Part shown: piece by piece, positions 7,991-51,300 of the stretch
How positions within the stretch are numbered: position 1 is the stretch's first letter
Layout: each line of letters begins with the position of its first letter
Assembly: GCA_964434115.1 (NCBI GenBank)
Contig: CAYSSX010000001.1
Span: forward strand, 329,459 to 393,458
Direction: 5' to 3'
Length of the DNA stretch: 64,000 bases
Source: an uncultured bacterium
GTDB lineage: Bacteria; Omnitrophota; Omnitrophia; Omnitrophales; Aquincolibacteriaceae
Made by a program: the position numbers and the translations under genes
Notes under the pieces: model-generated
What the model was told of the DNA's origin: nothing
What the model saw: only the letters and a program-made list of their open reading frames with translations
Database searches by the model: none

Positions 7991-8001
7991 AACTAAAAAC
8001 T

Positions 8002-8364: not shown

Positions 8365-8460
8365 AAAGCCTCCTTAGAGATTAGGGGGTTAAAACAACGG
8401 GAGCATTATAGGAGGAAAAGGTGTTTTTGGAATAAAAAAGATACGCTTGCTAGAAGATGC

Positions 8461-9174: not shown

Positions 9175-9360
9175 CTGCGCTTTCGGCTGGGTAATATAAC
9201 TTAAAAAAGAATTCACGTTTTTCTCGAAGGTTGAAATGTTAACGGGCGCTTTCACGCGCCCGGAACATTTTCCCGGCGCCGGGAAAATCTGGCACCAATT
9301 TAAACGAGAATACGGACAATGCAAATCTTTTTTGTCCGGAGAGAAAACAAGAGCGGGTTT

Positions 9361-10203
9361 TTACGCCGCGGATTCGACGGCTTTGCGGGAAAGGAATTCG
9401 GTGATAAACCGCTGCAAGTTACCGCGGTCAATGGACAGAACGCCGTCTCCGTCCATCTGCAAAAAGGACGGCCCTTCGTACTGGCCGCCCTTCAGAAGCG
9501 CGGCCCAGACTTTCTTCAAAATCTCGGCCCGGTCCTCCGGGTTCTTTTTCAGGCGCTCGGCCGTGCCCGCAAAATGCGAAGTCAGAAGCGCGCCCGAGAG
9601 CATCGCGATGAGCGCCGCGCTTTCAAAGCCGTCATCCGTCCCCGCCTCCCCCAGCAAGGTCACGGCAAAAGCACTGGCGTTACCCTGAAGCCGGGCCGCG
9701 TTCTCGGGGCTTGAAATCACCGGCATGCTTTCACCGTTGGAAAGCGAGAAACGCGCGCGGTAATTTGCCGGGTCATTCAAGGTTTCAAGCGGAATCCCCT
9801 CCGTATCCAGGAGGGACAAATCCATGCGCTTGGAAACGAGCAGGGTTTCAAAGCGCCCTTTCAAGGCCGGGTTTTCCTCGAGCACACGCCCCAAGGCAAT
9901 CTCTTCCCCCGGGACATCCAGAACCGCGCCCAGTTTTTCTGTTTGCAGAACACTTAACGCGTCCACAAACCAGCCCTGCGCAAAAGCCGCAAGGCGGCTG
10001 TCCATTTTAGGAGGCGCGGCCGTTTCCGAAACAGCGGCTTTCTTTTCCGCCGCCAAACGAACGCCTTCAAGTCTCAGCTCCGCGGCCAAATCCTCCAGAC
10101 CGACCTCTTGGACAACCGCGGCAACCCCGGAGGCCACCCTTTGCGACTGATTCGGATTAAAACCGTTTGAAACCAGGCCCTCGGCAAGCTGATGCGCAAG
10201 ATC
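9361..10203 (-). other. Conserved C-terminal module of giant protein 1 (~280 aa, ends ...AVESAA)
   Basis: Homologous to the C-terminus of giant 2: VVQEVGLEDLAAELRLEGVRLAAEKKAAVSE vs VVRTVLEDLALGRNLRREAAAVLAEKAQRQMPAVES, and GTAERLKKNP...FLSRKAVESAA vs TRITAERLKKLS...FSANRLIQSAA. Confidence 0.75.
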
Positions 10204-13200
10204 ACGGAGTTCGGAACGCGGTTCTTCACCCCGCTCCGCGGCAAGGGCCGTAAGACTGGCCAAGGCCGCTGCCGCAGCTTCCCGAAGGTGCTGTTCAGGG
10301 GCTTGCTCGGCCAGATGTGTGAGTTCGTCAAGGATCTCCTGTCTTGTATCCCCTAAAGCCCCAAGGGCAAGAATAGCATCCTCCACAACAAGGAGGTCGA
10401 CGGGATTCTCGTCATCCGTCAAAATTTTCAAAACTGAGGGCGCTGCGCGCACGGCTGCGGGGCCCATGATGGTTAAACCCATGATGGCAAAATTAAGATT
10501 GAGTCCATGCAGACTGGGAGTTTCCAAAACGTGAACGAGTGCGTCCATGCCGAGATCCAAACCGCCTGCCCCCTGAAAACCAATGAGGTGCACTAAATTT
10601 CCATACTCGCCTGGATAGGCTTCGGCCTGCTGAAGCAGTTCCACCATTCTCGGCACCGTGCTATGGGCGAAAAAACGAAACGGCAAAAGTCCTAAAACTC
10701 CCGCAAACCGTGCAGCGTTCGGCGCCATCAAGAGATTGATTTCATTCTGAATGATCTCAGCACGGTTTGGCGCCTGAATAAAGTTCAAATACTCTGCGGC
10801 GTTAAGGCGGTGCATTTCAAGAGGTCCATTTTCTTCAAGTTCCGGATATATGTCCGTGTGCGCTTCCACGAGGACCTCGGAACTGGTGATCGTATCCTCC
10901 TCCAATCCTGTAAAATCTTTCCCTGAAAGGGCACGCGCGCGTGTCACGCCAAGAGCCATCAGAGCAGAAACCAAACGACGGTCCCTTCTCTGACCGCCAT
11001 CCGCTCTCATCCATTGCCTCAGGCCGGACAAAAGCTGGGTACGAAGTCCGGCTTCTTTTGCGAATTCAAAAGAAAGGGCCGGACCCAGGTAAGCGATCCC
11101 AAGCGCGGCCAAAAGGGCATTGGGACGGTATTCGGAATCCAGAAGCGCGCGCGCGTACAGTCCAAGCCCGGTGTCTTCGAGTTCCTGAGGCAGACCCATC
11201 GCCGGATAAGTCGTCCGAATACGGTCGATGAGCGCCGTGATCCGGGCAAAAATTTCCGTATCCGGAAACGTCGAAATTCCCGCGCGCAGCCTTTGCAGGC
11301 TGGCCCGGATTTCTCCAGAGTCTGGCTGAGCGGCCAACGAGGCGCTGAGTGAATCAACCACCATTTCAAGAACCGCTTTTTGGTCTTCCGTAAAAGCAGC
11401 GCGCAGTTCAGAACGGGCCTCGCCTCTTTCGCGGGAAAGTCCAGTCAGGCTATCGAGGGCCCGATCCGCGGCCTGCCTGACACTTTCGCTCCGGGAGTCT
11501 TCGGAAAGGAGCGAAAGCGCTGCCAAAACATTCCTGTTTGTGTTGCCCAGGGCAGCCAAAGCGTCTACGGCGCTCGTCATCAAAGTCTCATCTAAAACAG
11601 CCGCTCCGCTCAGCAAAGGTAAAACCTGAGGCGCAGCTCTTGAAGCTGCGGGACCCGACATCGTCAAAGCTTTTAAAACGTTTCCCAGCAGGCTTGGATT
11701 GTCCCGAGAGTTTTGCAGAATTCGCAGGAGCTCATCCAGCCCCTGATCTATCCCGCCCGCGCCCTGATGCCCAATCAGTTCAATCAAGTGCTGATGAGCA
11801 GCCGGATAAGCTTCGGGATGCTGCAAAAAGAACACAGCAATTGGGACAACCGAGTAAGCAAGAAACCGGTAAGGCGTCAGCTGAAAATGAATTCCAAAAT
11901 TAGCCGGCTGCTCGGCAAGACGGTTCCGGAGGTTCTGCACGGCCACGGAGCGGTCTGGGCGCTGAAAAAAGCGGAGGTAATCAGAAGCTGTCATTGGCGC
12001 CACGCCAAACAGGTTTTCATCGGCGCCTGAGAAACGGCTGCCTGTAAATGCTTCCCTGACAGGGATACCCAGAGCAATCTTTGCCATGACGAAGCGGCGG
12101 TCGACTTCCTGCCCCGCTGTTGCCATCAAAGCATCAAGCCTCTGAAGGAGCTCGCCGCGAAGCCGCGAATCATTTGTAAATTCAAAAGAAAGGGCCGGAC
12201 CCAGGTAAGCGATCCCAAGCGCGGCCAAAAGGACATTGGGACGGTATTCGGAATCCAGAAGCGCGCGCGCGTACAGTCCAAGCCCTGTGTCTTCAAGCTC
12301 TTCAGGCAAAGCCATCGCGGGGTACGTACTGCGGATACGGTCAAGAGCCACCGCCATTCTTGCGAAAATTTCAGAGTCGGGAAAATTTCCAAGCCCATCG
12401 CGCAATCTTTCGAGGCTGGCACGGATTTCTTCAGACCCGGGCTGAGACGCCAGAGAAGCATTGAGCGAATCTGCAACCAGCCCGATGACCGCTTTTTGAT
12501 CCGCCGTAAAAGCAGCTCTGAGTTCAGAGCGGGACAGCTCACCAGAATCCCCCCCCCTCTCTTCCAAAAGCCCCTTTAAAGACGCCAGGGCATTCCTAGA
12601 AAAATAACGCACCGACTCCTGAGTGTCTTTCTCAGCCGCCTCTTTAAGCGCATCGAGTATAAACTCCGATGTGTTTCCGATAGCCCCCAAGGTTTCTGCT
12701 GCAAGGAAACGCACCCCTTCCTCTTCATCGTTCATTCGGCTTTGGAGCACCCGAACAACCTCCAGGGATGCTTTGCTTCCTGCGGGTCCCATGCCCAAAA
12801 TCATTGTCAGGGCCGCTTCTATCATCCCAAGGCTTGAATCCTGGTTCACCAGAATAGAAATGGCCTCATCCAGTCCCCTTTCGACGGAACCAGGACCTGC
12901 CAAGGACAAAAGTTGCAAGAGATGCAGGGGCGCGCCGCGATACAGCGGGGTCTGGGCATGGCTTAATTCGATAATGCCGGCAACTGCTTGCGGGGCCATA
13001 AAGCGGTAGCGGGCGATCTGAAGAATCGCCTCATAATGGTGATCGGCCATTCTAAGCCTTGCGAGTTGCTGCTGAATCCGGCCGCTGCGTTCAGGAGAAA
13101 GAATAAGATTGAACCATTCCTCTTTTTGCAGCTCCCTGAGGCGTGGTCCTGCGGGGTTGAGAAGCGTCTCATCTTCGATGAGCGGCCTTTGATCCGCATT

Positions 13201-16200
13201 AAAGGCGCCGAGAAGATGCTGCTCGGCCGAATCAGTCGCGTTTTCCAGAGAGCCCGAAAACTTTCCAAATGCATGCACACTTTTCAATGGAACACCGAGC
13301 GCCAGCATCGCAGCCATAACGGACCGGTCTTTTCCGTCAGAGTGGGACGCCAAGGATTGAAGCTCCGTCAGAAGCTTTTCCCGAAGCCCAGGAACGGCTG
13401 AAAATTCAAGATCAAGGGCCGGTCCGAGATAAGCAATCCCGTGAGCCCCCAAAAACTGAGTCGGCCGATGCTGCGACATCAAGGAGTCAAGAGCATACTG
13501 GCCGAGCCCCGCGGATTCCATTTCCTGGGGCAGAGGCACCTGCTGGAAATCACTGCGAATCCGGTAAATCAACGCGGTAAATCGTGCAAATATTTCCGCG
13601 TCGGGAAAATCCCTCATACCGGAAATAAGCTCATTGAAACCGGCAACAAGGGCATCAGAGCCCGGCTGATTAGCAATGCCTGACCGAGCCCATTCAGAAA
13701 CCATTGATAAAACCGATTTTTGCTCCAGACTGAAAGCGGCACGAAGTTCAGAACGGTTTTCACTTCCGGGTCCGGGCAAGGCGAGAGGCGGTTCTCCGGA
13801 ATCCGGCAACACCGTAGCTATCGCGCTCCTCCTGCCGCTCAAGGCCTCCCGCTGCTCCTCAAGCGACTGCCGCGTTTTTTCCGCCATGTAATTCTTGAGG
13901 TGTTTCAAGTATTCCGGGTGACGGGTTTTCACGGTTTCCATAAAACCAAAACGGGCATCCGCCTCAATTCCAAGCGCGGCCATAGACTGAACCACGGAGG
14001 CATGGGTCTCCGGGCGGAGCATGGGGATAAGTGCGATCAATTCCATGTCCTCTTCTGGAGACAGTCTCGCGGCCAAAAGCGCGTCGAGCGCCCATTCGAG
14101 ATTTCTTTCGCTCTGGTACAGCGGCCGGGATAAATCGTTTTCATAAAGATCCCCAAGCCAGTGATTGCTCGCCATAGCATGATCTGAAAAGGCCTTTTGA
14201 AACAGTCCCTTCTTTTGCATCGGCGTCAAATACCGGCTCTCCCCGATTGAAATAATGACCACGGGAATTCCCCGCCGGGCCTTGCCGTTAAAAAAATTCA
14301 TCCCCTGCGCTGACAAACTTTGATAAAGACCATAAGCATCGTCCGGACTGAGCGGGATACCTCCGAGCAGCGCCCCCATCTCCGTAATCAAATAGGCGGA
14401 GGTCTCACCCCTGGGTTTAGGAATCTGATGAGTCAGAAGATTCAGGAGGTCCCGGTTAAAGTCTTCGCCCAGCCCCCATCGCGCAAGCCCTCTAAAAACA
14501 TCTTCCATCTCCATCTCCAGGCGATAGGCCCCCTTATAATCTTCCCTTTTAATCCGCCCATAGGCCTGCGCCCATCCGCCGCCCCATTCAAGAAGCTTCT
14601 TTTTCCGGTCTGCAGCGGTAAGCCCCTCTAGCTCCTGAAGAAAATCTGACCGGGTTTCCGACGGCCCCAGTGTACGAACACTTTCCTCATCGATAATCGT
14701 CACGGGCTGTTTCATCTGGTCTGCATAAAGCTGGGCCGCGTGGGGACGCCCCATCCGGGTCATGAGTTCTGCCAAACGCTGAAGTTCACTATCGCCAAGA
14801 TTCAGGCGCGGAATCAAGCGTATATGCCCGGTCCCCGTGGTCCCTTCGAGCCCCCCCATTTCAAAAGCGCTGAGATTCCGGTAACCGGCCGTAATAATTT
14901 CTTCGTTCATTTCGGGTGGAAGCTTGGCCTGGACAAGCGAAAAGAAAAGGTCCTGCGGCGCGTACCCATAAAGGTCGCGGCTGAAAGATTCGGACAGAAG
15001 GTTCCGGTACACCGCAGAACTTTGCGTATAGAAAAGAAAGAGCCCCTTCTTCTGTTCCGGGCTCAGGTTCAGACGCCCGGTCATACGCACGAGCCGCGTG
15101 ACTTCAACGCTGCGCGTGAAGGCCTTTTTCACGGCGCCCAGAATGTCAGAATCCTGCGGCGCCTTGCCAAGAAGTCCAAGGGCCGCTCCATTCACCCGGC
15201 TGTCGGGATCCATAATTCCCAAACTCAAATAGCGGTCCGCGTCCGCGCCCTGAAGCCATTGAGCGCCATTCTCCAGGCCTTTAAAAACCGCCTGCTTGAC
15301 TTCCGGCGGCTGGGCGGCCGAAAGGTAGCCGTCGGCAAAAGCAATACCTGCGGCGTAATCCGAAGCCAAAAGCACTTGCAAGTGGACTTCAATTTGATCC
15401 AGAGAAGGAAGCACACTTTCTATCTCGGAAACTAAAGCCCCCTCCAATCCGCCGGCATGATAGGGCATCAGTTCAGAAGACGCGGCCGTCGAGACTGTCT
15501 GATAATCAGCCCCTCCCGCGGGGGCTTGCCCGGCTTGAGCCGCAGAAACGCCTGCCTTTTCATACTTGGAAAGACGCTCACGGGCCGTGTCATCGATAGG
15601 AATAAGGTCTCTGAAGAAGTTTTCAAACTCAAGGGCTTGACCTTCCGTGAGGCCTCCCGGGTTAAATAAAAGCGGCGGGATGAATTTCTCGAAAGCCTTT
15701 TGTTTGCCCCCCGCGAGAAACGAACCGGCCAAACTCCTCCAGTCATAAAACTGCAGCCCAAACACCTGTCCGCTGGGTCCCAGAAGGCCCGTGGCGCGAA
15801 AAGCACGCACCCTGCCTGAGTCATCCAAAAGTTCCGGAGAGTCATCGTCAAAATAGAACCTCTCCGCGGCCCCTTCTTTAATAATTTGGGCCTTAAAATC
15901 GATTTCGCTCTTATCCTGGAAACGAACCTTGATTTCGCCGGGCTTCCCTTTCACGTCTCCGATTTCACGGAAAAAGCGCAGGATACCGCGGCGGGTCACG
16001 ATCAAATGAAACCCCGCGGAACCGACCGACATCAAATCACCCCGGTATTCGTCCGAGCGAAAACCGTAGGCGCGGCGCTGATAACCGGAAGGGAAAATGT
16101 TATCATCGGGATGGTTATGCAGATTGGAAGAAATCGTGTTTTTTCCGGGAAACATGGCGCTCACACTGCTCTCATTCCCCTTCAAGATCACAATCTGTTC

Positions 16201-19200
16201 GCCCCTGTTAAATAGATTCACTTCAAACGGCAGCTCTGCAATGTTTCTCAGATCCACCAATGTCGGCTGCGGCACATACGCGTAGAACCCCTGATCGTCA
16301 TTTTCTGAAAACTTCTCCAAAACCTGGCGGATCGAAAGCTGATCACCCAAAAAACGCTCGGCTTTGAGAATTTCAGAAGCGCTGCCAACGTGATTTGTGG
16401 AAGCCCTGATCAAATGCTGAAAAACAAGGCGGCGGACGCTGGGGTTGTGGTGCTTCAAAAGCTGACGTACCAGGTCATTCCCTTCGGGCGTGTTATAACG
16501 CAGAATGTTGGGCACAATTTCTTCCCCCCCATTATTGACGAGAAAGGCAGAGGCAACCCCTTCTGCATCAAGACGCCCCAAACGCTGACGGACGTAAGGT
16601 TCGTATCCTTCCGGCAAGCGGCGCGAAAGAAGAAAATAAGCCAGATGCTGGCGGGCGCGCCGGTCGAGCTGGGCATACGTGCCAGGCTGCAGCATAACCT
16701 CCAGAACTGACAGGGAAAATTCCACACCCCGCTCTACATGCTGGTTGAACCAGTGAAGATCCACACTTCCGCTTTTCCTTCTCACATCACGCATGGCGGC
16801 ATTAAACTTGACCCTGTCGACACCTTTCTGAATAACGTTTCCGATCCTGGCCAGAAGGCCGCCCGGCTTCGAAGGCTGTGCCCCCCCCGGCACCATGGCT
16901 CCTTCGCCTGGCCCGGGGACGGCAGGTAATCCAGGCTCATCATCCTGCATAGCCCTTAATTCGGAACGCGGGAAGCCCCCCTTCAGCACGTAAATCTGGG
17001 AAGCCTCGTCGGGATTATGATTCGTGACGGTGACACGGCCGTTTGCATACTGCACTTCAAAGTGCTGCTTCCCGAGCTCCAGGTTAACACGGTTCGGCTT
17101 TATCGCTCTCGGCCTGTGGCCCTGGGCCTGGACGTACAAACGGCCTTCGCTCACGTGAAAACCAATCACCGGATCCGAACCGTAATCAATCCGGAAAGGT
17201 CCGTCGTAAAAAAACTGCAGCTTCCCGCCGTCCCCTTCCACAAAATTTCTAGGCTGCAGCACTAGGCTGTGCTCGGGCTGAACGCTTTCCAGAATTTCGG
17301 AAGCTTCTTGATCATCCGCAAGACTCTGCTCATCCTGGCTGAGAGGTTCCTTGGGGGCCTTTTTCCGGGGCGAAGGCACGAGCCGTTCTTCGACATGAAA
17401 ACCGTTGGTCGACCCCTGGTTTTGTAGAATGACAAAATCCTGCCCTCCCAGAACATCCGTCATCAGCATCAAGTGGCCGGGACGAACAAAGTCCTCGATC
17501 TGGTGCGGGAGCCATCCTTTGGGCGCTGCTGGAGCCTGGGCGGCTTCGGCTTTATCAAGATCAATCGTGATGCGGTCTGCGGCGCCGGGATCGTCCGCCG
17601 CGCTCCGGGAAATCCGCGTGATCTGTGTAATGGTTTCCGGGCGGTCCGGTGAAATCATGTTTGGCAGGTAGTAATTCCTGACCAGGCCGTTTTCGTCCTT
17701 CCAGGAAATCACAACGGCCGACCGGCCATCCCGGATTTCCCCTGATTCATCCAGCTGAGAGGCCGCATCAAGCTGTTCACTTTTGTTTAAAAACAAATCA
17801 AACAGGCCCGGCAGTGAAACATGGCTGGTTTTGCTCCGGTAAATAAAAAGAGGCTGCCCATCATGGATTTCAACATCGTCGAGTTTTCTCCATTTTCCCT
17901 CCCCTTTCTCGTTGGCCAGGAAAACCTCCAAAAGATATTTGGGAGACGCGGCACCCACCAGCGCCCCGCCGGACTGCGAACTTTCACGCTCCGCCTGCAG
18001 GGATTCAGGAAAACGGACCATCCGGAAAGTCAGATTTCCAAGCTGGAACCTTCCCATATCTTCAAATGGGTATGCCCGGGTCTTTTTGAAAAAGAATTCC
18101 GTAACGCCCTTGGAAACAGATCTCGCATAGGTCCTGGAACTAAACCCCGGCACTTTCCCAAAATCCGCGGGGGCGGCAATAAAACGGTAAGACTCAGCCT
18201 CTTCTTCACTGCGCAATTCAGAGCGCAGCGCATCCTGCCCGCGCTTCACGGCCTCACGCAGCGTCGTGATGGGACGAACCTGCAGCGGGATAATACGGTT
18301 GTCGGCGTCGATGGAAAACTCAACGTCCACCGGGTAGCCGAAATAAGCTGAAAAGCCGTCCACAACCGCGGCTACGGCCAGCTGCTGTTCCCGCGTCAAG
18401 GAACTCTGACTCCGAAGCGCTTCGTCGTTTGCAATCACCGCATACCCCCCGGACTCAAAATCCAGGACCACTTTTTCCTGCTTCTGTCCGATATGCTCCC
18501 TCTGAAATTGATACGACTGGCCTTTGGCCGAAGGTTTCGAAATAAGAAAATAATCCGGGTCTTTGACGGTCTGGTCCACAAGGCCTTTGGCAAGACCATG
18601 GGCCGCTTCAATGCGTACCACCGAAAGGTCCCGTGAAGCGGTGTCCGCGCTAAAGGCCGTGCCGGAAGTCTTGGGGTTGATCATTTCGTCGATCAGAATA
18701 CTTTCCGCACCGGAGGCCCAGACATCCCGAACAGCCGCAAAAAGACCGGCTGTCCCGGTCACGTTTAACTTCGTTTCCTTCATTCCCGCCATCGCTTCTT
18801 CTTCACTGTCTTCTTTCAAACCGGACGAACGCACCGCCACAGCCCCCAGAACCCGGAGACGGTTCGCAAGAGAAACGGAAATGGCCTGAGGGAGGTATAT
18901 TGAAAGAAATGAGACGGTGAAATTCCGAAGCAGGTTCACGAGTCCGTCGATCACAACCGGATCCTCGGCAGCGCGCAAAGCATTCAGCGCAGGTTCCAGG
19001 ATTTTCTTTTCCAGATCTTGCTTGATGCCCGCTGCCGTCCTGTCATCTGCTTCGATCAATTTCAAAACAGACTCAATCTGTTTGACGGTGAGATCCCGGT
19101 AGGCCAAAGCTAGAGTCCTTTTGAGATCTTCTTCCAGATCTCCCTGCGTCTTGAACCAGCGTTCATATTCTGCAGGCTGAATCGCGAAGCCCTGGGGCGC

Positions 19201-22200
19201 TTCAACCTGGAAACCGGCCGGGATTTTATTCTGGGATTTCAGGAATTCAATGGCATGCAGGGTTTCCGCGGAGTTGGAGCCTTTGCCGCCCGCAAGAGGG
19301 CGAGAAAAGCGGTCTTTCAAATCGCTTTTCCAGAGAATCCCGAGTCCCTGAAGAGCTTTGACTTCATTTTCCCGCTCACCGCGGAGCGTCAGAGTCCGGC
19401 TTTCGAGTTCCTGCAAATCCCCTGAAAGTCCCATGGCGTCCAAAACCTGATCCGGAGCGCCCACCGCGCCGGCACGCAGAATCAGGGAGCGGTAACTGAG
19501 CAGCATGGATAATTCATGGGCCGGAAACTGGGCAGCACGTGTGAGAAAATCCCGGATCCCGTAAAAAAGGGCCTGGAGATAAATACGAATCTGCCTGTGT
19601 GCCGTTTCGCGGACCGAAACCTTGCCCGCTTCAATTTCTTTGGCCGTAATGCGTCCCTGCCAGGTGCCATTGGCAAGCGCAATCATTCCCTGAAGACTGT
19701 CAGCGCGGGACATAAAACGTTCGACATCAAGGTAGAGTGCATCCAGTCCGGCTGGAGACTGCGCCAGAGGGCTTTTCAACCGGGCGAGAAGATCCGCCAG
19801 CCCCTTTTCAAAATTGTCGACTTCATTTCCCGCGCGCCCCCGCAGAAAATCTTTCACGATTCCCTGGAGATCCTTCCGGTCTCCAAGCGCCTCCATCAGG
19901 CGGCTCAGCGACTCCGGGCTGAGAAGATTGGAATCCAGCAGTTCGTCGAGGATGGCGCGAAAAAGACTTTCACTGTCGAGAGTTTTAAAGAGTTTCTCAA
20001 GCGGCGCAAGATCAATGACCGCCCCTTCCGCAGCCTGCTGTCCCTGGCGCGCGGCCTCATACCCGCTTTGATTTTTCCAATCAAGAAAGGCCTGGAAATC
20101 AGCCAGTGTTTTTCCTCCGGCTTCCCCAGCTTCGGCAATCACATACAGCGTGCCTTCACGGGCATCCAGATAGACAAGATCGCCTTCCCGGATCGTATGG
20201 GTTTTTTGATTGCCTGCCTTCAATTCATAATAGGAAAGGGTCCGGCCTTTGAAGTCGATCTGCGTTTCAGAAGCATAATCGCTGTAACCTTCGAAAGAGA
20301 AACCTTCGGGGGTAATTCTCGCTGTGTTAAAAATACTGCCTGGTTTCCGGTTCTCTCCCGCACGGACGGAACCGTGCGATTGAACACCCCCCGTGGTCAT
20401 AACGATCCCCAGGGAAGCAAAAAGATGAGGATCATCCGTATTGTCCGCGCTTTCCCCGATCCAAAGCGCTCCCCGGAAATCTTCCGGTGAACGTCCTTCC
20501 TTTTTAAAGCGGGCCACTGCCAGCGTCTTTCCCGGCTGCACAGACAGACCGCCGATCGAAAGCGGGCTTACGGCGTGACGGGCCGTGCTTTTCTCAAAAA
20601 GACCTTCCGGGTCAAACACACCTTTTACCTGCGCCACAGAGTTCACGGCTTCCTCGGATGAAACCGAAGCATCCAGCGAGGATTGACCGGGCGCGGTTTC
20701 CACACTGCGCGCTTTCAAAAGTTCCCGGCCCGCATGTGTCTGTCCAAACCCATGAAGTTTCAAAAGCTCCAAAAGCCCTTCGCTGCTGAGATGGTTGCCG
20801 TTCAGTTTGATCCCGCGCGCCCTGTCATACGTCTGTTCCGGAGAATAGAACCGGCCCAGGTACGCGGCACCTCCGTAATAAGCCTGGCTCTCCGGGTCTT
20901 TGATCAGATCAATGGTGAGGTCTTCATAGAGAAGCGGAATCACAATCCTTTCCACTTCATAGCGCCCCACCGACGCAAGCACACGGTGTTCGGCAAACGG
21001 ACGAATCATCAGCGCCAGCGCTGCCGTCTGCCGGGCATCCAGGGAAAGTCCGCCGTCGGCCCCCTCCGGAAAAAGGTTTTGAAGAAGCGCCTCTACCGGT
21101 GAGCGGAGCGCCGCTTCTTGAAAGGACACTGAAAAGCCCAGGGTCCCGCCCGGGGCATAAACGGCTTCACTGCGGTCCGCGGCCTGTTGAAGGCGGCGGC
21201 TGAGCCTGTCGAGAAAACGCTGTCCGGTTCCCTCCAAAGGCACATTAAATTCCTTCCCAACACCTTTCCAGTGGGCAAGGTCCGGACGCGGGGCCTGAAG
21301 CATGAAAGGCACGCCGCTGTCACGGACAAGGAAGCCGTCTTCCGAGAAACGCTCCGCGATTTTTTCAGCCGCCTGACCGGGATTTGTTTTCAGGGAATCT
21401 GTTTCATTGATCCTCAGGTCAAGATCCTTGGTCGAAGTCAGCGCCTGAATCGCAAATTCCAGTTTTTCGATCATCTCGGCCAGAGAGCTGGCATTGGAGT
21501 CTTTATCGAAAGAGGCATCCAGCGTGTAACCGACCTTGCGCACCTTAAACCCCGCAGCCGTGAAGGCCGCGGCGAGAGAATCAATGCGGATATTGCTCCC
21601 CGGCGCGTAATAACTTCCGCTGTCTGTGTAGTTGATAAACAGCCGCCCTGTCTCCTGAACCGGAGCCAGGGAAAGCTGGATGCGCGCGCTGTGCACCCCC
21701 AAAGGAAGGTTGATCAAGGCCCGGTTTTCGGTGGAAAGGATGACGGCATCCTTGACCGGAAAAAGAAGATTGTTGCGGTGGATCAACTGCCCCTTGGCCA
21801 AGGCTACGGCCGCAAGTTTCACCGGAAGCGGATGATTGCTGTCCGGGGCTGAGCGGGCATCCAGATAAGAAAATGGAACGTTCAGCAAAGGTCCCAAAGC
21901 GCCGCCCGTCCCTTTCTGATTGAGCAGAACCGCTCCCTGAGCCGCGCTGCCGTCCGAAGGAAAAAGAGTCGAGAGATTGCGCACGCCTTTTTGGTGAACA
22001 ATATTGACGAGTTCGTGAAAGCTGGTTCCCTTGATCGCATCATAGCGGGCGGTTTCCTTGGCAATGCCGCCCAGGACCTGCTGCTGATACTGACGGTACT
22101 CAGCGTAAGTCACGCCTTTGATCAGGGCCGGATGATCTTTTTCTGTTTGCTCGGCGGGCGTGAGGATAAGCGAGGCTGAAGAACGGGCATCGAGTTCCTG

Positions 22201-25200
22201 GATCATTTTGTTGATAAACGGGTCCAGAAGATCCGTGTCCTTGGCCCCGGGCTGAAGAATCGAAAGGGCGTATTCGGTTTCTTCACGGATGCTGAGGAAG
22301 AGCTTGGCAATAGCTCTTCCGCCCGCAAGGTCTGACGAAGATTTGGAAATCGCATCAATACTCAAACCGGGATTTTGTTTCTTGAAAAGAACCAGATAGG
22401 CTTTCACCATTCTTTCCATCGCGCTGAAAAGCAGGCGCATATCTTCCACCGTCTTGTCCTGTTTCATCAAAAGATTGATGACTTCCGCATTCAGGTCTTC
22501 AAAGGCTTCGAAGTCGCCCATGAGTTTCCGCGCCGCCGCATTCGACTGCCCCGCAGAACCGGTGCGGGAGAGCGAATAGGTGGTTTCATGAAACACCTGG
22601 TCACGCGGATCAAACTCATAATAGGAAACCGGTTTTTCCGCCGAAACCGAGGGGGTCACCCACGGGTATTGCGGCGCTGACTGAGGCCCCGGTGTGCCGG
22701 CGCCGGTCTGCTGATCAGGCTGCACCAGGTTGGTCCAGAAATCATGAGATGTCCCAGAGCTTTCAGGATCCATGTTCAAGATTCCTGAAAGAGCCGCTGG
22801 AGACACATTCGAATCTCCGGTCGCGCTCAACAAGCCATTATTTAAAGCCTCCCTGACAAGCAGCGCAAGCAGACGAAGCCGGACCGGGGCCGGGAAACCC
22901 GCAATTTTTCCCACAAGTTCTTTTCTCTGCTCCATACCCAGAATCCCGAAGACGCGCGCCAGGGATTCTGCGGCGGCCGCAGAGGGAGAAGCCCCCTCCA
23001 GGCGTTTGAAGAGAAGGTTGATCAACTGAGAGGCTTGTGCCGTATCGTCGGAAAGCACCGCGGGAAGGGCATGCCCAAGAACGCCTTCAACAGCTTCCGG
23101 ATGATTTTGCATGAGAGCCGCTAACTCAGCCCGCTGATTGTCCCGAAGTTCCTTATCAAGATAAGGGTAAATACGCGCCCGCAGAGACGCATCCTGATAA
23201 ATCTCTGCCTGCTCATAGAGATCGTCGATTACCGCGGCACGCTCCTCGGCCGTAAGCCCGGGCAGTGCAATCGCCATCCCTCGGACAGCGCCGGGATTTT
23301 TCAGTTCAAACTGCTCATCAAGGATTAAAAGGATTTCCTGGCGCATCGCGCCGTACCAGGGCGTGATTCCGGCATCAGGCGCAAGCCACCGGGCGAGCAT
23401 GTAACCAAGGCCTTCGTAATAACCTGCCTCCCCGCCTCCAAAACTTTTTAGGTAATTAAAAACCGCGTCATTCTCTGCGGGAATCATCGCCCCTGTGGCC
23501 AGGATCATTGCAAAAAAAGGCAGATCTTTCTCAGTCGAAAAACCGTAGCCCTCAGTGCCCTTGGTGACGGCGGAAACAATCTTGCCGCTCCATTCCAATT
23601 GGGCAGGTTCCGGCAGCAAATCAAACGCCCACGATTTTGCAAAATGGAGCGCTTCAGACACTGCGGCATCCCCGCTCCCCTGCGCCTCCAAAGCCGAAAG
23701 CTCGGCAAGGAATTGTTTGTGAAGAGCCTGCATCTGGTCCACGCTTTCCAAATCAATACCCGCGTCGATTTGAGCTGCGGGGCTCTGTACCGGATTAAGA
23801 CTATCAAAAAGGCTAAGATGACCGGCGGCCGCCAGGACAGCCGGAATGTCGCTTGAGATTTGGCCGGCGACCGCTTGAAGAATTTTCTGCTGCACGTCAG
23901 CGGGCAGAAACGAATACCTGTTTGCCAGAATAGCCAGAGCTTCCGGCTGAACGGAAGAGACCGTCAGCAGGACTTCCGCAGCCCGAAGAAATTGCTCTTT
24001 ATGAATGCCAAAGGCGCCCCCATAGGAATCAAAAATGAGTCCCAATGCCTTGAGCGCATTCTCATCCGCCGTGTTGTCCTGCATCTTTTTGAGGGCACTT
24101 TCAAAAACAGATTCGCGGTCGTCTTTCCGAGGAATTTGATTGCCCAGAAGCAGGTACGCAAGTCCTATCATCATTTGTTTCTCAGGCGCTTTATTGAGAA
24201 TTTTTTTGACCATTTTAGGATCCAGAACTTCCGGAGCGTTTGAACTTAAGAAAGCGGCAGCTTCGAAGACCTCGGCACTGGGGAATTTACTTTCAAGCTC
24301 TAAAAGAAGTGCGTTCTTGAACTCCACCGCTTTGCTTTTCATCGCCGGGGAAAGCTTGGAGAGAAATGCAGCCGCATGGGCCCCTTCAATCGGATATTCC
24401 AATTCCCCGGCTGTAACGAACTCAGAAAGATAATTATCGGCAAGCTTCTTCGAATGCGGATCCAGGTAGTCATACAGAGAGATCAAGGACGAGACAGCAG
24501 CCTGGCGGTCCAATGCATTGGAATGAAGTTTATTCAATTTATGCTTGAGGGTCGTGAAAACAGCGGCTATACGTTTTTGAGGGATTTTGTTTGCCAGCTT
24601 TCCCAAAGCAGCGGTGGCGGCAGCTGTATAGTGTTTATTGTTTTGGCTTGCCAGAGTCAGCAGCTTTGGGACAAGTTGATCCTGCACAATATCCGACGTA
24701 AGCTGAACTAAAAGATCCTGGGAGGGCAGCTTCGCACTCTGAATTGAGAGCGCCGTCAAAGCAGCATTCTGAATGAGCGGCATTTCCTGGTTCTCTTCCG
24801 CTGGCAGGCTGTCACTCCAGGCCTCCCTCGCAATCAAGCCTAATGCGTAAAATGCAAATAAAGCGGCCTGCTCTTCCGGTTTCGAAATTTTTTCAAGAAT
24901 GATTTTAAAAAATTCTGATTTTTCATCAGGGGTCAGGTGATCATAAATTGCTGCGGTATAGGGAAAGGCTGTCAGCTCCTTGCCTTCTTTCACCAACTGC
25001 AGCAGGTCTTTGCGGATACTTTCATTCAAGGCTTCATTATCAGAACTTGCCATGCCCTGTGCCAAAGCGGCCAGAAGCGCCGGGTTCGCAACCAAAGCCC
25101 CGGTTTTGATTTGTGCGGCCAGAGCCTTGTAAGCCGCGGCCCCTTGCGGGGAATCCGCAGAGTCGCCGCTTTCGGTGTGCAAATACAAAACGGCTTCGAG

Positions 25201-28200
25201 CCTGACTTTGGATTCCGGAAAAAAGGCGCCTGCCTTTTTTACCAGCTTTTCAAGACGTTCGTGCAAAGCCTGATCGAAGGTGTATTGAACGTGAGCCAGC
25301 GCCCATAACGCGCTTTTAACCCGCCCCGCATCGGTGTTCTGGCCCTGGGTCAGATTCAAGGCTTCCGCTTCTTTAAAGAGGATCTCCAAGGCTTGCTGAT
25401 AATCGTCAGCTTCCGGATCCATGGTTTCAGCCAGGATGCCTAAAGCAACCAGACCGTCGGGGTTCCCTTTCCGGGCAGCTTTCAAAATGACGGCTGGAAA
25501 GTTTTTAACTATGGCCCGGTGCTCCGGAGTGATAGCTTCCCCATAAGCCATGGCCATACTGATCAAATAGGGATTGAATTCCGGCTTGGACGCGGAAAAG
25601 ACTTTCAGGATTGCAGAGAAATCAATAGGCCATCCTGACCCGGGCGGTTCCCCTTTGGCTTTGAGATCTTTGAGAAACTGCGTCTGCTTGTCAGGGGGCA
25701 GGGCAGGAAAGGACGCGGCCATACTCCGGTTCCGGAAATCTACCATTCCTGCCGGAAGATCAGGTTCCGGCTGGGATGCCGCTGTTTGAAAGGCTTTAAG
25801 AATGTCCTCCTTAGAAGGCCCCTCTTCCGCACCTTGACCCGCACTGGAAGCTAAGGTTTGAGTGAACGGCTTTGCGGGAAGAAACTGATAGGGGGGTAAA
25901 GATTTTTCAGACTTTAATTCACTAAGTTCCGCCGTGACATCCCCCGCGATGATGGCCGCAGCTAAAAGCCCTGCCGAAGATCCGTTCTCAGCGAGAGATC
26001 CAATGGCCGCCACAATGGATCCAATAGCGGAGGACCCCTCGGGCACGAGCCCATAAATTTCAGCCAGGCCTTTGACGGCTTCGGGGTTTCCATCCGAGTA
26101 ACCGTTCAGCAGAGCTTGAACAATTTCCTCCATTCGCTGCTCATCGCCGGCATCAAGGCCAAGCTGCCTGCCGATGACTGCCAGCGCTTGGCCGGAATAC
26201 GGTATCCCCAGAATAAAATAATTAAGGATTCGTGCGTATGCCGCATCCCGCTGGCCGCTTTCCAAAGAACTATAGAGTTCCGCGAGTCCCAAAAGGGCTT
26301 CCGATTCATTCGATTGCATCAATTTTGTGTAAGCCGAAGAAAGGTCATCGGGATCACCGGCAATTTGAGCCAAAGCGCCGAGTGCGGCGAGCGAACCCGG
26401 ATATTCCGATTGACTGACTTCATAAACAATTTTTTTAATCGACTCCACTTTCGCACTGCCATTCTCGGCTTTAGCATAAACCTTGGCCATGTGAATCAGT
26501 CCGAAGAACGCTCCCTCTTTAAAATTATCTGCCCAGAGTTTGACGATGTCGTAAACGCTGTCTCTTTGAGCCGGCGAGAGGAACTCAAACAGAATTCCAT
26601 AGGCGTGAACGGCCGCGTTTCCTTCAACCGTGGTTTGACTCAGTTTCGATTTCAGGAGATTGAGAATATCCTGCTGCGCCAGCTCACTCGAAGACGGGTA
26701 AATATGCCCCAAAGCCTCGATTGCGAGCACATCCCCGGCCTGGGCCTTTTCCATAATCTGATTGCGATACTTGTCCCGGAAACCCATAAGAAACTCCTGT
26801 TTGACAAGCTTGTAAAAAACAGGCTTCTTTCCTTGCTCTGGGCCCCATGGAGGTAAAGGCGTCAAAACGTCTTCAGGCGCCTGCGTTCTCAGGGCAAAAG
26901 CCATACTGATCGCAATGCGTGCAGCCCGCTTTGCGGGGAGAACCTCCCCCGCGAGTTTTTCACTCAAGAGCGATGACACCTCGGAGCGTTTGGACACCGG
27001 CAGGGCGGCAAACATTTCCGCGAGGCCGAGCAGTGCCTGTTCCTGACGGGCGCTGAAACTTTCTGACCGGGCCTCAGCCATAACCTTGAGATAGATTCTC
27101 TCGGCCGCTTCAGGGGCATTCGGGGTCAGCCTGGAATAAATCCGGGCGATGCTCCTTATTAAAAAAGGTGCGGCTGCCGAGTTCGAGTCAATGAACCCCC
27201 AAGCATCCGAAAGGTCGGTGTTCTCGCTCGATAATGCAGCCAGGCTGTAGGCAAGCCCCGGAAGGTCTTCGGCTGTACTCATAGCTTGGGTGATTTCCGT
27301 CAGGAGAAAAGCAGGCAAAGCCGAAGGCGGATACTCGTAAAAAACTCCGAGGTAGCGGGCAGCTTCAAGCTGGCCAGTCTTAGAAAGCTCAATCAATCCC
27401 TCGATGAGCTGCTTTTTCTCTTCAGGGTTCAACGCCTCAGAGTCAGCTTCGAAAATATCGGCGAGCGCGTAAAACGCCTCATGCTTCCCCATCTTGGCCT
27501 GCTGAAAAAGATATCCGATGACATCACTGGCATAAATCCCGAGCGAAGAGTAAGCAATCCCCAGCGTGCGGATATTTCCGCTGCTCAGAAGAAGCGCCTG
27601 TGTGGTCGCCGGATTCTCACCCGACGGAAGACCGCCGCGCAGCACCCAGCCAAGGGCCTGCAGTTCGAGATCGTTTTCCTGTAAAGCGCCGGGCTGAACC
27701 TGCGTGTAAGACGACTTCAAATCTTCGATGAACCCACTCCGGAGTTTCTTGAGCTCCGTATAGCCGGGCGGCAGTCCTTCGAAGACCGGATCGTCTTCCG
27801 CGCGGAGTTCAGAACGGGCGGAAGCCGTATCCAAAACAGGCGCATCCGTCCCCGCCATTCTTGTTTGGGCGAGGTCGCTGGCCTGAATCGCGAGTCCTTC
27901 AGGGGTCTGAGTGATCCGGATCATGGGCCCGCCCCAGCGCGAGCCCGGTTCAAGAGCACCTTGCACAGCATCCACGGGACGCGCCGCGGGCCTGAGAAGC
28001 TGCGCAATGTTCTGTTCATTCAAAGTGCCGTTCTGCTCCAGACGCTTTAACTGTTCGATGAACTGTTCGATTTTTTCCAGCGCCGCGCTTGGCCCGCTGT
28101 CCTTGGATTTTGAAATTTCATCGAGAAAGCGCGTGTAAGCGCCGGCTTCGTCAAGCCTCCCCTGCGAGGCCAAGTCACGGAGGATTTGATCACGCCAGCG

Positions 28201-30507: not shown

Positions 30508-30516
30508 GGATTTTTT

Positions 30517-47490: not shown

Positions 47491-48393
47491 TTAGGCCGCG
47501 CTCTGAATCAAGCGGTTGGCGGAGAACTTGAAGGCTATTTCGAGAACCAGACGCGTGATACGGAGACGGCTCCCCTGCATCTGGAGAATCCCCGGCAGAA
47601 ACTCGGACAGTTTTTTGAGACGTTCCGCCGTGATCCGCGTCTTCCCGTCTTCGGCCAGCATCCGGGAAAGCAGAATCACCACGGGCAGCTCCTCACCGGC
47701 TTCGACTTCCGAAAGGACCGCGCGTCCGGAGAAATCGGAAAGCAGTTCCGCGTCCGGGAGACCGTAGACCAGGGCGCTCCCGAACTCATGCAGGTAACCC
47801 GCCAGGGATGCCGACAAAACCGCCTCGTTCATCTCCACGGGCGTTGCCACGCCCAGACTTCCCGCTTCCTGGAAAAAATCTTTCACGGCCGGGTCCTCCA
47901 TTTCATGCTCGAGCACCATCACCTTGACTTTCGCGGTCAACTGGGAAGGAAACGCGTCCCGGAGGGCTCCGAGTGTTCTTAAATAATTCAGCAGCCCGGC
48001 GCGCGCCTTTTCACTGCGGGGCAGCCGGTAGCCAAAAGCAAAAACGAGTTTCTTGGAAGTGTCCGCGCTCAAAGCCTTACGCACATCCCTTTCAAAACCG
48101 GCGAGCAGTTCCTGATAAAAAGCCGTTTGGGCCGTATCGTAATCGGGGTGCACTTCCTGGACATCCTCGGCCGCGGCCCGCCGTGGTTCCGATCCCGCGC
48201 TGAGAAGACTCGCGTAATGGGGATCCTGTCCCTGCTCACGCAAAGCCGATTCTACGGCCGGCATTTGACGCTGCGCCTTTTCGGCCAGCACGGCGGCTGC
48301 CTCCCGCCGCAGATTTCTTCCAAGGGCCAGGTCTTCAAGAACCGTCCGAACAACGTCCTGAAGCGCCTCGGCGCCGGTGTCTCCGCCGGACAA
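47491..48393 (-). other. Conserved C-terminal module of giant protein 2 (~300 aa, ends ...RLIQSAA)
   Basis: Paralogous to 9361..10203 (see that feature). Confidence 0.75.
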
Positions 48394-51300
48394 GCGCAGT
48401 TCGGAGCGCGCCTTGGCCTGCTCGGATTGCTTTTTCAACGCTTCGTAAATCTCCCGGTGTTCATCCACCAGCAGTTTCAGACTCCCCGAAAGAAGGCCGT
48501 GATAATCCTGGGTCAGGGTTTCAAAAAACGGCATGCTGAAGAAAAATCCCCGGGAAATTTCATCCAGGTTAATCGCCAGAGAAGCCTTTTCCTCATCATC
48601 CAGAATGTAGGCGTAAATCGTGACCCACTCCCGGTTCACCAGCCCGCCCTGAAATGATTCCCGGGGAAAACCGTTGGGCGGCGAAAGCAGAAGCAGCTTT
48701 TCGGGTTTGATTTTCAAACGGATTTCCTCTTCGGTTTCGCGGATCGCGGCCTGAATCCTCGACTCTCCAAGGTTCACGTGTCCGCCGGCCGAGACTTGAA
48801 GTTTTCCCGGCGACATATCTTTATTCATGCTTCTTTCCTGTAAAAAAAGCTTTCCGTTTTTGTCAAACACATAGACCTGCGTGACCGCGTGCCACTCGCC
48901 TTCCTGATGCGCCTTCAGCTTGCTCTGTCCGACAGCCGTAAGAAACTCTCCCGTGGCCGGATCCACGTACTGAAGAATCTCATCCGCGTGCGTGTACAGC
49001 TGATGAAAACTGCGGTCCAAAGTTTCCGTTTCCGGATGATCCGGAAGAGCGCGGAGCTCAGCGCGGCTGGCCTGGGAAAGCGTGCCTCCTGCGGCAATAT
49101 TCGAAACGCTCAAACGCCGGGAATTTCCCCGCTTCGGAACCGGACCGCCGCCCTTGCCCTTGGGCCTTACCACAGCGTTCGGAGAAAGCGCGAGCTCTGT
49201 GATGGTGAAAACACCCTTGGGCGTTTTTCCGGCTTTTTCAATTTCGAAAACCAGTGCGATTTTTGCGGTCTTCACGCCTTTCAAGGGCAAGGAGGAAAGA
49301 TCCAGCACCAAGGCTTCCCCGGGCTTCGGGGCACTGACTTCTAGGGTTCCAAGAACTTTTCCTGCGGGAGAATCGTCACTCAATTCAATCTCGAACTTGT
49401 CCGGAAGCACCGACTCTTTGCTAAATGCGATGCGGAGGGATTTAAAGGCTTCCGCGTCAGCGGCCTTGAAGTTACCGGTAAATCCACTGAAGCGGTTCTT
49501 GTTATCAAGGCTGAAAGCGATCTGGATCGAGCCGTCCGTATTTTTCTTTTCCATGTTATCCGGGGCCTTTTCAAGGTTCGTAAACATCGCAATCCCGGTA
49601 AACGCGGCTAAAAGGTCCAGGTCTTTACGGTTCACGGCCGCGTAGCGCCGGTCAAAGGCCTGAAACTCGGCGGCAATGTCGGGGTAATCTTCCCACTCCG
49701 CCACCACGGCGCGGAGAAACGGCGCTCCAAGCGCTTCAAGAATGAGACCCTGATTCATATAAATGCGTTTTTCGTGATACGGCGCGCCGGTCTTGGGATT
49801 ATAGGAATCCCCAAGCCCCCACAATTCACGGTAACCGTTGCGCTTGGTCACCGCGCGCACAAAGGCCTCAGCATTGTCCACGGATTCCGGGACATCGCTA
49901 AGCAGCGCCAGAAAGGGTCCTGCCGCCACGAGCACCGAGGCATCTTTAAGACCGTAGACAGCATAGGAATCCGCTTTCTCTCCGCTGCCAGGCGCCGACA
50001 CAGCCGCAACGTGCGCTCCTTTTTTGGCCACGGCCCGCGCGGCCTGAAAGTAATTTTTAGAACTGACCGCAAGCACGGCAGGCGAAACCTTGGCCGGGTC
50101 TAAAAACTGCAGGCCTTCGTATTCGGTCCAGGCGGATAAATTGGCGTCTCCATTGCCGATCGGAACATCACCCGCCGTGCCGGCCGCTTCCACCCATTCG
50201 TGACGCAGTTTTTTGAGAACTTCCAGTCCCTGAGCGCGCCGCGTCTTGAAATCCTTTTCCGGGTCGCCAAGGACTTCCGGCATCAAGAAGAAATCCCTGG
50301 CCTCCGTATGACGGTTATCAATAAAGGATTCGTTCAGAGTCAGGCTTTTATCTGCCGGATTCACAAACACCTGGCTGCGGAGCCTGCCCTCTTTATCAAG
50401 AAAGCCGCGGTAGTCCGCCTTGGCAAGCAAGGCTTCGGCTTTTTTCACAATCGTTTCATCTTTAAGGCCGCGCACGTACCCGCCTTTGAAAACTTCGGCA
50501 AGCAATTTTAGCCTTACGTGCGTCAGCGCCATATCGTAGGCCGCATAAGCCACACCTGTCTGGCCTTCTTTGCCGGGGATTTTCATCAGCTCCGTCTTAA
50601 AAGGCTTCGCGGCACCTTCTTTTTCATAAACAAGCGTTTCAGGCAATAGCCCGGTGTTCACGCCGTTGATGCGCAGGCCGAACTGATCCACCATTTTTTC
50701 AAACATCTCAAGCGATTTTGTGATTCTTTCCGTGACCTTTTTGGGATCACTCAGGGCTCCCCGGTCGCCAATGGGAAAATTGGAATGGGACAAAGCCGCG
50801 AGCAGGTCTGCACTCCACATAAACCCGATGTCCGCGGAACGAAGCCATGTTCCCACGGGATTGCGCGGCGCTTCACCCTGGTTGTAGGGCATTCCCACCG
50901 GAGAACGCATGCTCAAAAGACTGATCTGCGTATCGCGGTAAACCGGGCGCAGCGTCATGCGCCGGAGAAACGGATTCACGGGAAGTTTGATCTGACGCGG
51001 CTGATCTGCCGGAGCCTTTTTCTGCTGAGCCGCGGCAGGTCCTGTCATTCCCGTCAAGGCCGAAAGCCCCGTGGCCGTGGCCGATACCCAGCGGATAAAA
51101 TCCCTGCGCGTGGGATCCTGGCCCTGGCTCCTTAACTCCGAACGGTGCGGAAACACTTTACCCAGGACCCAGTCCGGATTTCTCAGGATTCGGGACCGGG
51201 TTTCCTCCAGCCTGCGGCCGGCCGCCGAAAAATGGGCATGAAGATCATTGACCGTCTTCTGCTGCAAAAGTCCGCTTTCATTAAGCACGCCGTGCGACAT

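Follow-up and report, generated by a model that had tools for sequence, protein, structure and literature searches.

Within the genome of an uncultured Omnitrophota bacterium (Aquincolibacteriaceae), one very long open reading frame (ORF) begins with a Sec-type signal peptide and carries a predicted phosphotransfer module of the phosphoenolpyruvate (PEP) synthase/pyruvate, phosphate dikinase (PPDK) type; the questions raised by this locus are what the module is and in which compartment it could work. The DNA analyzed, here called the window, is a stretch of 64,000 nucleotides (assembly GCA_964434115.1, contig CAYSSX010000001.1, positions 329,459-393,458, forward strand). Two very long ORFs lie in it, both on the minus strand:

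9361..29811, minus strand: giant 1, a single ORF of 6,816 amino acids (aa) carrying the dikinase module
47491..59496, minus strand: giant 2, a single ORF of 4,001 aa

A sequence-only reading of the window had flagged positions 18260-20560, within giant 1, as a phosphohistidine domain followed by an ATP-grasp domain. We consider it probable that this stretch forms the C-terminal half of a dikinase-type phosphotransfer enzyme that is intact, is predicted to span ~1,485 residues (aa 2385-3863), and is carried as one of the cargo cassettes in a long multi-enzyme protein. The module is predicted to be an ATP-driven, well conserved member of the PEP synthase/PPDK type, the enzyme is under purifying selection, and the reversed order of its domains is the normal architecture of its clade.

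Identity and extent of the dikinase module

The unit consists of an upstream region of ~700 aa, a histidine-bearing (His) domain, a helical linker, and an ATP-grasp domain, preceded in the same cassette by a helical-repeat scaffold:

22660..27801, minus strand: helical-repeat scaffold, aa 671-2384
20560..22659, minus strand: conserved upstream region of the module, aa 2385-3084, a putative substrate or second active-site region
20122..20559, minus strand: phosphohistidine swivel domain (PEP-utilizers type), aa 3085-3230, with a β-hairpin insertion of ~40 aa
20374..20376, minus strand: codon of His3146 (motif TTGGVQSH), the predicted phospho-acceptor, from its invariance in alignments
19330..20121, minus strand: all-helical linker from the His domain to the ATP-grasp domain, aa 3231-3494, from an AF2 model
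18232..19329, minus strand: ATP-grasp domain (PPDK_N), aa 3495-3860, from PF01326

The peptides quoted in the sequence-only reading all occur in one ORF, giant 1, and the flagged range agrees with the His domain plus the ATP-grasp domain, but the motif coordinates were off by 4-38 nt. The peptide GIVMTTGGVQSHGSVRAGE (aa 3135-3153) lies at 20353-20409 on the minus strand and not at 20391..20420, an interval that is misplaced by 11-38 nt and could not encode 19 residues; GGKGSNSAETLH (aa 3508-3519) lies at 19255-19290 on the minus strand instead of 19271..19294; and AVRSSGLKEDSEEEAMAGMKETKLNVTG corresponds to aa 3659-3686 of giant 1. The distance from the His to GGK is 362 aa by count, where ~370 aa had been estimated.

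The ATP-grasp domain is recovered strongly by Pfam (PF01326, 139.7 bits, E = 1.8e-40; cut-off 27), and NCBIfam models for PEP synthase, rifampin phosphotransferase (RPH), and PigC score 1e-23 to 5e-29 over the same stretch. In the Protein Data Bank (PDB) it matches PEP synthase 8a8e (4e-14, or 1e-42 using the family profile) and RPH (6e-11). The PF00391 match to the His domain of giant 1 takes ~100 residues to cover 62 profile positions, which indicates an insertion of ~40 aa; homologous modules carry this insertion as well, and there the domain reaches 34-51 bits. When eight module sequences are combined in a profile, it hits the PPDK central domain (PDB 5jvn, residues 365-465, E = 2e-4), and the module family profile also matches the isolated PPDK carrier domain 2fm4. 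The scores of the homologs and the matches to PPDK therefore settle the identity of the His domain; the region around His3146 also aligns with the catalytic His region of RPH. Two AF2 models of the module were obtained (pLDDT 88.5 and 88.7; pTM 0.88 and 0.87). The second (aa 3080-3869; pLDDT 88.7, pTM 0.87) resembles the RPH ATP-binding domain 5hv6 (Foldseek E = 3e-14, TM 0.67) and also matches PEP synthase 2ols; in this model the linker (aa 3231-3494) forms long helices, most of its 10-residue blocks having pLDDT 74-91. The linker has no match in Pfam or NCBIfam, and the scaffold (aa 671-2384) has no significant Pfam family. Both domains proposed in the sequence-only reading are genuine, PF01326 being strong in giant 1 and PF00391 weak there but clear in homologs and by fold.

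That reading had staked the module on recovery by profile searches and on conservation of the catalytic His. Both profiles were recovered, and His3146 (TTGG-x-x-S-H) is invariant in alignments of 8, 21, and 26 relatives (A3, A4, and A5). The ATP-grasp Lys, Glu, and Arg residues, whose conservation it had proposed to check, are likewise preserved: GGK (3508-3510), RSS (3661-3663), ED (3667-3668), the Glu of DVE, and QVRP (QxRP) are all invariant (A3 and A5). A syntenic ortholog (P0011; 5,604 aa; GCA_020049755.1), which shares the gene order PMT...DUF4202-giant with window positions 29896-33216, has the following identities to giant 1:

His domain: 81.5% (pN 0.12, pS 0.69, dN/dS ~0.07, an approximate value)
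Upstream module region: 68.9%
ATP-grasp domain: 65.3%
Helical linker: 61%
Helical scaffold before the module: 39%

In this comparison pN is 0.12-0.25 and pS ~0.7, and the His domain is the segment most conserved in the whole of giant 1. These values bear on one option left by the sequence-only reading, namely that the module is vestigial or decaying and has no catalytic function. A sub-threshold PF00391 match, the motif AGE where canonical enzymes show ARE, and a predicted extracytoplasmic location without ATP could be taken in this sense, but neither the catalytic His nor any ATP-grasp signature residue varies, no part of giant 1 is better conserved relative to the ortholog than the His domain (81.5%, dN/dS ~0.07), and the AF2 models are confident. 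Because the catalytic residues are invariant and selection is purifying, this option is untenable, and we regard loss of function as very improbable.

The extent of the unit follows from its relatives. An exhaustive HMMER search with aa 2670-3869 returned 3,406 proteins below E = 1e-3, of which 29 were below E = 1e-30. The matches include colinear ones to at least 12 other large proteins (1,228-5,604 aa; 31-68% identity). By BLAST, the block common to the carriers reaches aa ~2385-3869, so that the enzyme would comprise ~1,485 residues, including the conserved ~700-aa upstream region, and not the ~770 aa first proposed. The module family was recovered by the exhaustive search; a word-indexed protein search gave one match for the 821-aa module and, with the family alignment, canonical PEP synthase and RPH only. 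Six-frame ORFs from 79 related Omnitrophota loci, which cover ~10 kb downstream of the N-terminal domain described below, were also searched by phmmer with the four parts of the module, and no match was obtained.

Relatives, gene neighborhoods, and proposed mechanism

About half of the top 150 HMMER matches are stand-alone proteins of 1,600-1,700 aa labeled "pyruvate, water dikinase," with the His domain at ~930-1,090 before the ATP-grasp domain at ~1,320-1,640 and with PF00391 and PF01326 both above threshold. They are homologous to and colinear with giant 1 from aa ~2596 to the end of the module (22-25% identity), and the same residues are invariant across the giant-borne modules and the stand-alone group. 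The His domain does precede the ATP-grasp domain, the reverse of the order in PEP synthase, PPDK, and RPH, as the sequence-only reading had noted; however, since at least 12 large carriers and many stand-alone proteins have it, this order is a property of the clade and not an oddity of giant 1.

Five stand-alone members, from five different 50%-identity clusters, were examined for their neighborhoods (P0053, P0045, P0051, P0052, and P0048). In all five, a MaeB-type malic-enzyme gene (malic, Malic_M, and PTA_PTB domains) lies directly downstream, at a distance of ≤18 nt and often overlapping, and a fumarase gene is near in two of the five. The stand-alone genes with an adjacent malic-enzyme gene are located as follows:

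8001-12944, locus L080/L081
5724-10673, locus L083
2054-7096, locus L087
857-5947, locus L088
P0052 contig

This adjacency ties the distant relatives to the malate/pyruvate node, and these neighborhoods point towards malate/pyruvate metabolism; the stand-alone proteins may be PEP-forming enzymes with a noncanonical substrate domain, or regulators. The synteny is no proof that the giant-borne module has the same role.

In the giants, protein-interaction modules always precede the dikinase module. Giant 1, P0011, and P0014 have HEAT-like repeats there, whereas P0012 and P0015 have "ALGxAY" repeats; WD40 is confirmed by Pfam in P0016 and is apparent, by sequence reading, in P0020 and P0017 (the latter starting inside a contig fragment), and P0023 and P0024 have FHA-like sequence. 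The giant-borne enzyme may therefore have a macromolecular substrate. The module also occurs in carriers that have no copy of the N-terminal domain shared by giants 1 and 2, so it appears to have moved between different families of large proteins. Four of these carriers (P0016, P0019, P0020, and P0022) have a common C-terminal tail of ~60 aa, GGIDFNP...(I/V)IN(I/L)xP(M/I)T(N/D)LxxFLG, and P0019 and P0020 have another N-terminal domain in common (LSPYEKNRI..FGxTEMGRDLLAQDYxLKQ).

Other arrangements are also found. At one locus (L085, 618-15579), three reverse-order dikinase paralogs of 1,292, 1,541, and 1,623 aa lie near one another; in the second of them (P0044), a domain of the low-molecular-weight phosphotyrosine phosphatase type (LMW-PTP) is inserted between the His and ATP-grasp domains. 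The first and second paralogs are separated by an AAA_14/DUF4143 gene that is encoded on the other strand, and an ADP-ribosylglycohydrolase gene adjoins the group. In giant 1, the cassette that follows the module (aa 3868-4290; 16942-18210, minus strand) contains by eye an FHA-like "GSTNG," while a Pfam scan of giant 1 that allowed E values up to 1 reports no FHA; the precomputed annotation of P0006 includes PF00498.

By comparison with the superfamily, the C-terminal ATP-grasp domain would bind ATP and phosphorylate His3146 on the swiveling carrier domain, and the carrier, with the helical linker on one side and the upstream region on the other, would hand the phosphate to a substrate bound by the ~700-aa upstream region. 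Canonical dikinase chemistry with His3146 as the phosphate shuttle is, by this analogy, the most likely scheme, and the need for ATP that had been predicted is supported. What we infer here, rather than observe, is how the phosphate travels, what the upstream region does, and in which compartment the enzyme works.

Several points weigh against an intact dikinase-type enzyme in giant 1. The PF00391 match of its His domain (19.1 bits, E = 0.001) is under the gathering score of 23.1, and dS relative to P0011 is near saturation, which makes dN/dS approximate. The upstream region has no PDB match and no recognizable fold or ligand-binding signature, its substrate role being argued from its position. 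The malic-enzyme synteny belongs to relatives at 22-25% identity, and Pfam scans found no malic-enzyme domain in giant 1. Finally, a cleavable-looking signal and no stop-transfer segment would, at face value, place the protein outside the cytoplasm and away from ATP.

Signal peptide, junction motif, and site of action

The signal peptide of giant 1 is located at its N-terminus:

29722..29811, minus strand: Sec-type signal peptide, aa 1-30, MISNSGMRRVVSLALIFCLVPFGQVPSAQA followed by QSS, with n/h/c layout and an AxA site, read from sequence

The Sec-type start that the sequence-only reading had placed at AQA/QSS is supported by this layout, and the signal is the sole segment of giant 1 with a Kyte-Doolittle hydropathy above 1.8. 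Hydrophobic N-termini are present also in paralogs and relatives. A lipoprotein-type N-terminus (LIFC) was considered and rejected, as Phe precedes the Cys and the Cys is not conserved in relatives. A further option of the sequence-only reading, an N-terminal anchor with the bulk of the protein in the cytoplasm, finds little room: MRR precedes the hydrophobic core, which by the positive-inside rule argues against an N-out anchor with cytoplasmic bulk, and a hydropathy scan of giant 1 found no second transmembrane segment that could return the chain.

The tension between a signal peptide and a cytoplasmic-type enzyme had been presented as unusual; it is in fact published and general among long proteins of Omnitrophota, as is the presence of PPDK_N in them (West-Roberts et al. 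2023; Nielsen and Lui 2026). According to these studies, 94% of long Omnitrophota proteins have a signal peptide or transmembrane helices, and 9-13% have a signal peptide only, a class that giant 1 fits. PPDK_N is listed there among the 20 commonest domains of the giants (West-Roberts et al. 2023), and "multi-enzyme metabolic" long proteins are given as a major class (Nielsen and Lui 2026).

Most likely the enzyme works in a compartment that contains ATP, either the cytoplasm of the producer or another cell. The second of these, also among the options of the sequence-only reading, would make the giant a secreted effector, exported whole by its Sec signal, with the dikinase acting after delivery into a host or prey cell. 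This proposal is compatible with a signal peptide that carries an AxA site, with the lack of further transmembrane segments in giant 1, with the 9-13% of long proteins that have a signal peptide only, and with cytoplasmic-type cargo (HEAT, HATPase_c, NUDIX, and GNAT), as well as with published accounts of predatory or host-dependent Omnitrophota and of a link between giant proteins and predation. However, neither giant 1 nor its neighborhood yielded a delivery apparatus or translocation domain; the internal transmembrane segments and Tat- and Sec-like signals of giant 2 and the family fit sorting within the producer better; and the stand-alone relatives are ordinary-looking chromosomal genes directly upstream of malic enzyme. 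We therefore consider an exported effector unlikely.

For the producer cytoplasm, the giant may be cut at internal junctions, or its export may never be complete. The first of these is suggested as a fourth resolution, beyond the three offered by the sequence-only reading, by features that the two giants have in common. Behind the signal peptide, both have an N-terminal domain of ~600 aa (31% identity), here called IQDAHA after one of its motifs, and both are divided by the pentapeptide R-[S/A]-E-L-R, with seven copies in giant 1 and eight in giant 2:

27817..29694, minus strand: IQDAHA N-terminal domain of giant 1, aa ~40-665, with motifs IQDAHAxPEAQ, ALEG, and AGGFH
57500-59380, minus strand: the IQDAHA N-terminal domain shared by giant 2, aa ~40-665
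27802..27816, minus strand: RSELR of giant 1, aa 666-670, upstream boundary of the module cassette
18211..18225, minus strand: RSELR of giant 1, aa 3863-3867, a few residues past the ATP-grasp end, downstream boundary of the cassette
16954-16968, minus strand: motif of giant 1 at aa 4282
13741-13755, minus strand: motif of giant 1 at aa 5353
12517-12531, minus strand: motif of giant 1 at aa 5761
11401-11415, minus strand: motif of giant 1 at aa 6133
10204-10218, minus strand: motif of giant 1 at aa 6532
Giant 2, minus strand: motifs at aa 680, 884, 1509, 1947, 2531, 2785, 3478, and 3697
~51007-51144, minus strand: twin-arginine-type (Tat) signal TRRDFIRWVSATATGLSALTGMTGPAAAQQ of giant 2, aa 2785-2830, 7 residues past RSELR
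9364-10203, minus strand: C-terminal region of giant 1, aa 6537-6816, ending ...ESAA
47494-48390, minus strand: C-terminal region of giant 2, ending ...QSAA

A scan of one genome per species gave 320 tblastn-confirmed relatives with the IQDAHA domain, almost all in metagenome-assembled genomes of Candidatus Omnitrophota and often several per genome; this distribution by itself makes an Omnitrophota-type source of the window very probable. D, H, E, R, and GGFH are invariant in the domain. No Pfam family matches it above threshold, and no PDB entry matches it, even with the family profile; a weak Pfam match to erythromycin esterase (E = 0.083) and the motifs give hints of a TIKI/TraB/ChaN/erythromycin-esterase-type hydrolase. 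The C-terminal regions of the two giants have "TAERLKK" in common. Nearly all of the complete family ORFs (~30) end in x-[A/S]-A (SAA, QAA, TAA, RAA, TSA, and others), including a minimal member of 685 aa (P0009, ending ..FLSAA), and this ending could be a C-terminal recognition or degradation-type tail.

The reading in which the giant is cut at R-[S/A]-E-x-R, releasing the scaffold-plus-dikinase cassette (aa 671-3862) to act in the producer cytoplasm, is in our judgment a serious possibility that falls short of being the expected outcome; that the N-terminal fragment alone follows the signal peptide, while the other cassettes use signals of their own, we hold with the same reserve. The two giants contain 15 motifs and the other 7,623 aa of proteins in the window none. 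Across 81 proteins of the family (230,869 aa), 69 copies of RSELR were counted where 0.65 are expected, 67 of RSEVR where 0.38 are expected, and 40 of RSEMR where 0.12 are expected. The motif is ~100-fold enriched in the family, a figure that covers 79 related Omnitrophota loci; its flanks are not conserved, and motif density is 1.5 per 1,000 aa compared with 0.23 in neighboring ORFs. The codons of the motif vary synonymously, which indicates that selection acts on the peptide and excludes a DNA-level repeat as its origin. The motif is found at domain boundaries, including ~5-15 residues after the ATP-grasp domain in five carriers (giant 1, P0011, P0014, P0023, and P0024). Three tandem paralogous HEAT cassettes of ~400 aa (aa 5358-6532; 10216-13740, minus strand), each beginning with RSELRAAF, are missing from the ortholog P0011 as one motif-bounded block, which looks like gain or loss of cassettes at motif boundaries.

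Signals following the motifs point the same way. They include Tat-like sequences in giant 2 (TRRDFIRW...AAAQQ) and at locus L063 (SRRAFLK) and Sec-like ones at L045, L060, and L071, and 6.1% of motifs are followed within 60 aa by a hydrophobic segment, compared with 2.5% of random positions. On the other side, this enrichment is modest and comes from a crude hydropathy scan, and the internal signals may be relics of gene fusion. The N-terminal domain has no protease homology detectable in Pfam or the PDB. About eight long family members have no motif (some members use RPExR), and the motif may instead be a linker, docking, or modification site.

One of the two preprints states that the cleavage points of the giants are unknown (West-Roberts et al. 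2023; Nielsen and Lui 2026). No cleavage or junction motif was found in either study by term searches or in the sections read, nor were the IQDAHA domain, the RSExR motif, or the C-terminal xAA ending. The phrase "cleavage site" is absent from the retrieved Omnitrophota literature, and a literature search for RSELR gave only papers on the "varSelRF" software. The division of both giants into cassettes by R-[S/A]-E-x-R, possibly marking cleavage, is thus a candidate novelty. The broader proposal, that both giants and hundreds of IQDAHA relatives are polyproteins, with the pentapeptide as cleavage site and each cassette then following its own signal (Sec, Tat, transmembrane, or none), is offered tentatively, and we think it doubtful at this generality.

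Giant 2 carries HATPase_c (aa 2412-2527), NUDIX (aa 3538-3647), GNAT (aa ~1730-1870), and HEAT repeats. Its internal transmembrane segments are at aa 740-760, 1231-1320, and 2575-2620, and an HExxH-like "GHEMTH" (aa ~1327) has hydrophobic segments on both sides. Elsewhere in the window, three ORFs have no Pfam family:

33857-35332, plus strand: ORF of 491 aa, overlapping a 320-aa ORF on the minus strand, so that which is the real gene there is uncertain
4614-6014, minus strand: ORF of 466 aa
2190-3182, minus strand: ORF of 330 aa

Comparison with known dikinases and Omnitrophota giants

Taken alone, the module is a well-supported new form within a familiar superfamily: its domains run in mirrored order, and ~700 residues of conserved sequence have no known fold. 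The pairing of its stand-alone relatives with malic enzyme makes a target for enzymology, as a possible unrecognized route or regulator at the malate/pyruvate/PEP node. The locus also bears on whether Omnitrophota giants act as one chain or are cut, and the junction motif provides a precise cleavage hypothesis open to proteomics. If cleavage does occur, it would explain ATP-requiring enzymes within precursors that bear signal peptides: the dikinase cassette would stay cytoplasmic although its precursor begins with a signal peptide, and it would represent an uncharacterized reverse-order dikinase clade with a new substrate domain.

RPH (5hv1 and 5fbs) and PEP synthase (2ols and 8a8e) have the ATP-grasp domain first and the His later, the reverse of the module. 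Unlike them, the module has no PEP/pyruvate TIM-barrel (PF02896 was not detected anywhere in giant 1 by Pfam scans) and no RPH-type central domain, and the NCBIfam RPH models match its ATP-grasp part alone (81 bits against a cut-off of 999). It has ~265 helical residues between the His and ATP-grasp domains, an insertion of ~40 aa in the His domain, and an extra conserved N-terminal region of ~700 aa without known fold, and it is embedded in a 6,816-aa protein. In comparison with PPDK (1vbg, 5jvn, and 2fm4), the order is mirrored, running in the module from substrate side to His to ATP-grasp domain, the PEP/pyruvate domain is absent, and the His domain has 18-23% identity.

The plant α-glucan, water dikinases (GWD1/PWD) have the His domain N-terminal to a C-terminal PPDK_N, behind a long N-terminal substrate-recognition region, and to our knowledge they are the sole characterized enzymes of the superfamily with this order. 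Potato GWD has 1,464 aa and a catalytic His992; GWD has no structure in the PDB. In giant 1, His3146 is likewise followed by GGK at 3508 and then by the end of the cassette; the domain order is that of GWD, and the spacing from His to ATP-grasp domain is much longer in the module. A GWD-like role, in which the module would phosphorylate a polysaccharide (glycogen, starch, or a glycan of the cell wall, for example), could be proposed from this order and from the sugar-metabolism domains common in long Omnitrophota proteins (Nielsen and Lui 2026). However, when all of giant 1 was scanned with Pfam, allowing E values up to 1, no CBM45, CBM20, or other carbohydrate-binding family and no glycoside-related one was found; the upstream region has no PDB match; and the stand-alone relatives adjoin malic enzyme and fumarase, not glycogen genes. 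A polysaccharide substrate is accordingly improbable.

The stand-alone proteins of ~1,650 aa (for example P0045 and P0053; GCA_007126035.1) agree with the predicted dikinase of giant 1 in placing the His domain before the ATP-grasp domain, in the stretch inserted into the His domain, in an invariant DK and D within the upstream region, and in having helical repeats at the N-terminus; unlike giant 1, they are free-standing genes without signal peptide or junction motifs. Giants 1 and 2, at 6,816 and 4,001 aa, are below the 10,000-aa cut-off of one published catalog (Nielsen and Lui 2026). They resemble the Omnitrophota giants both in the N-terminal signal peptide with its question of topology and cleavage (West-Roberts et al. 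2023; Nielsen and Lui 2026) and in their mosaic of cytoplasmic-type enzymes and domains (PPDK_N, HEAT_2, HATPase_c, NUDIX, and GNAT).

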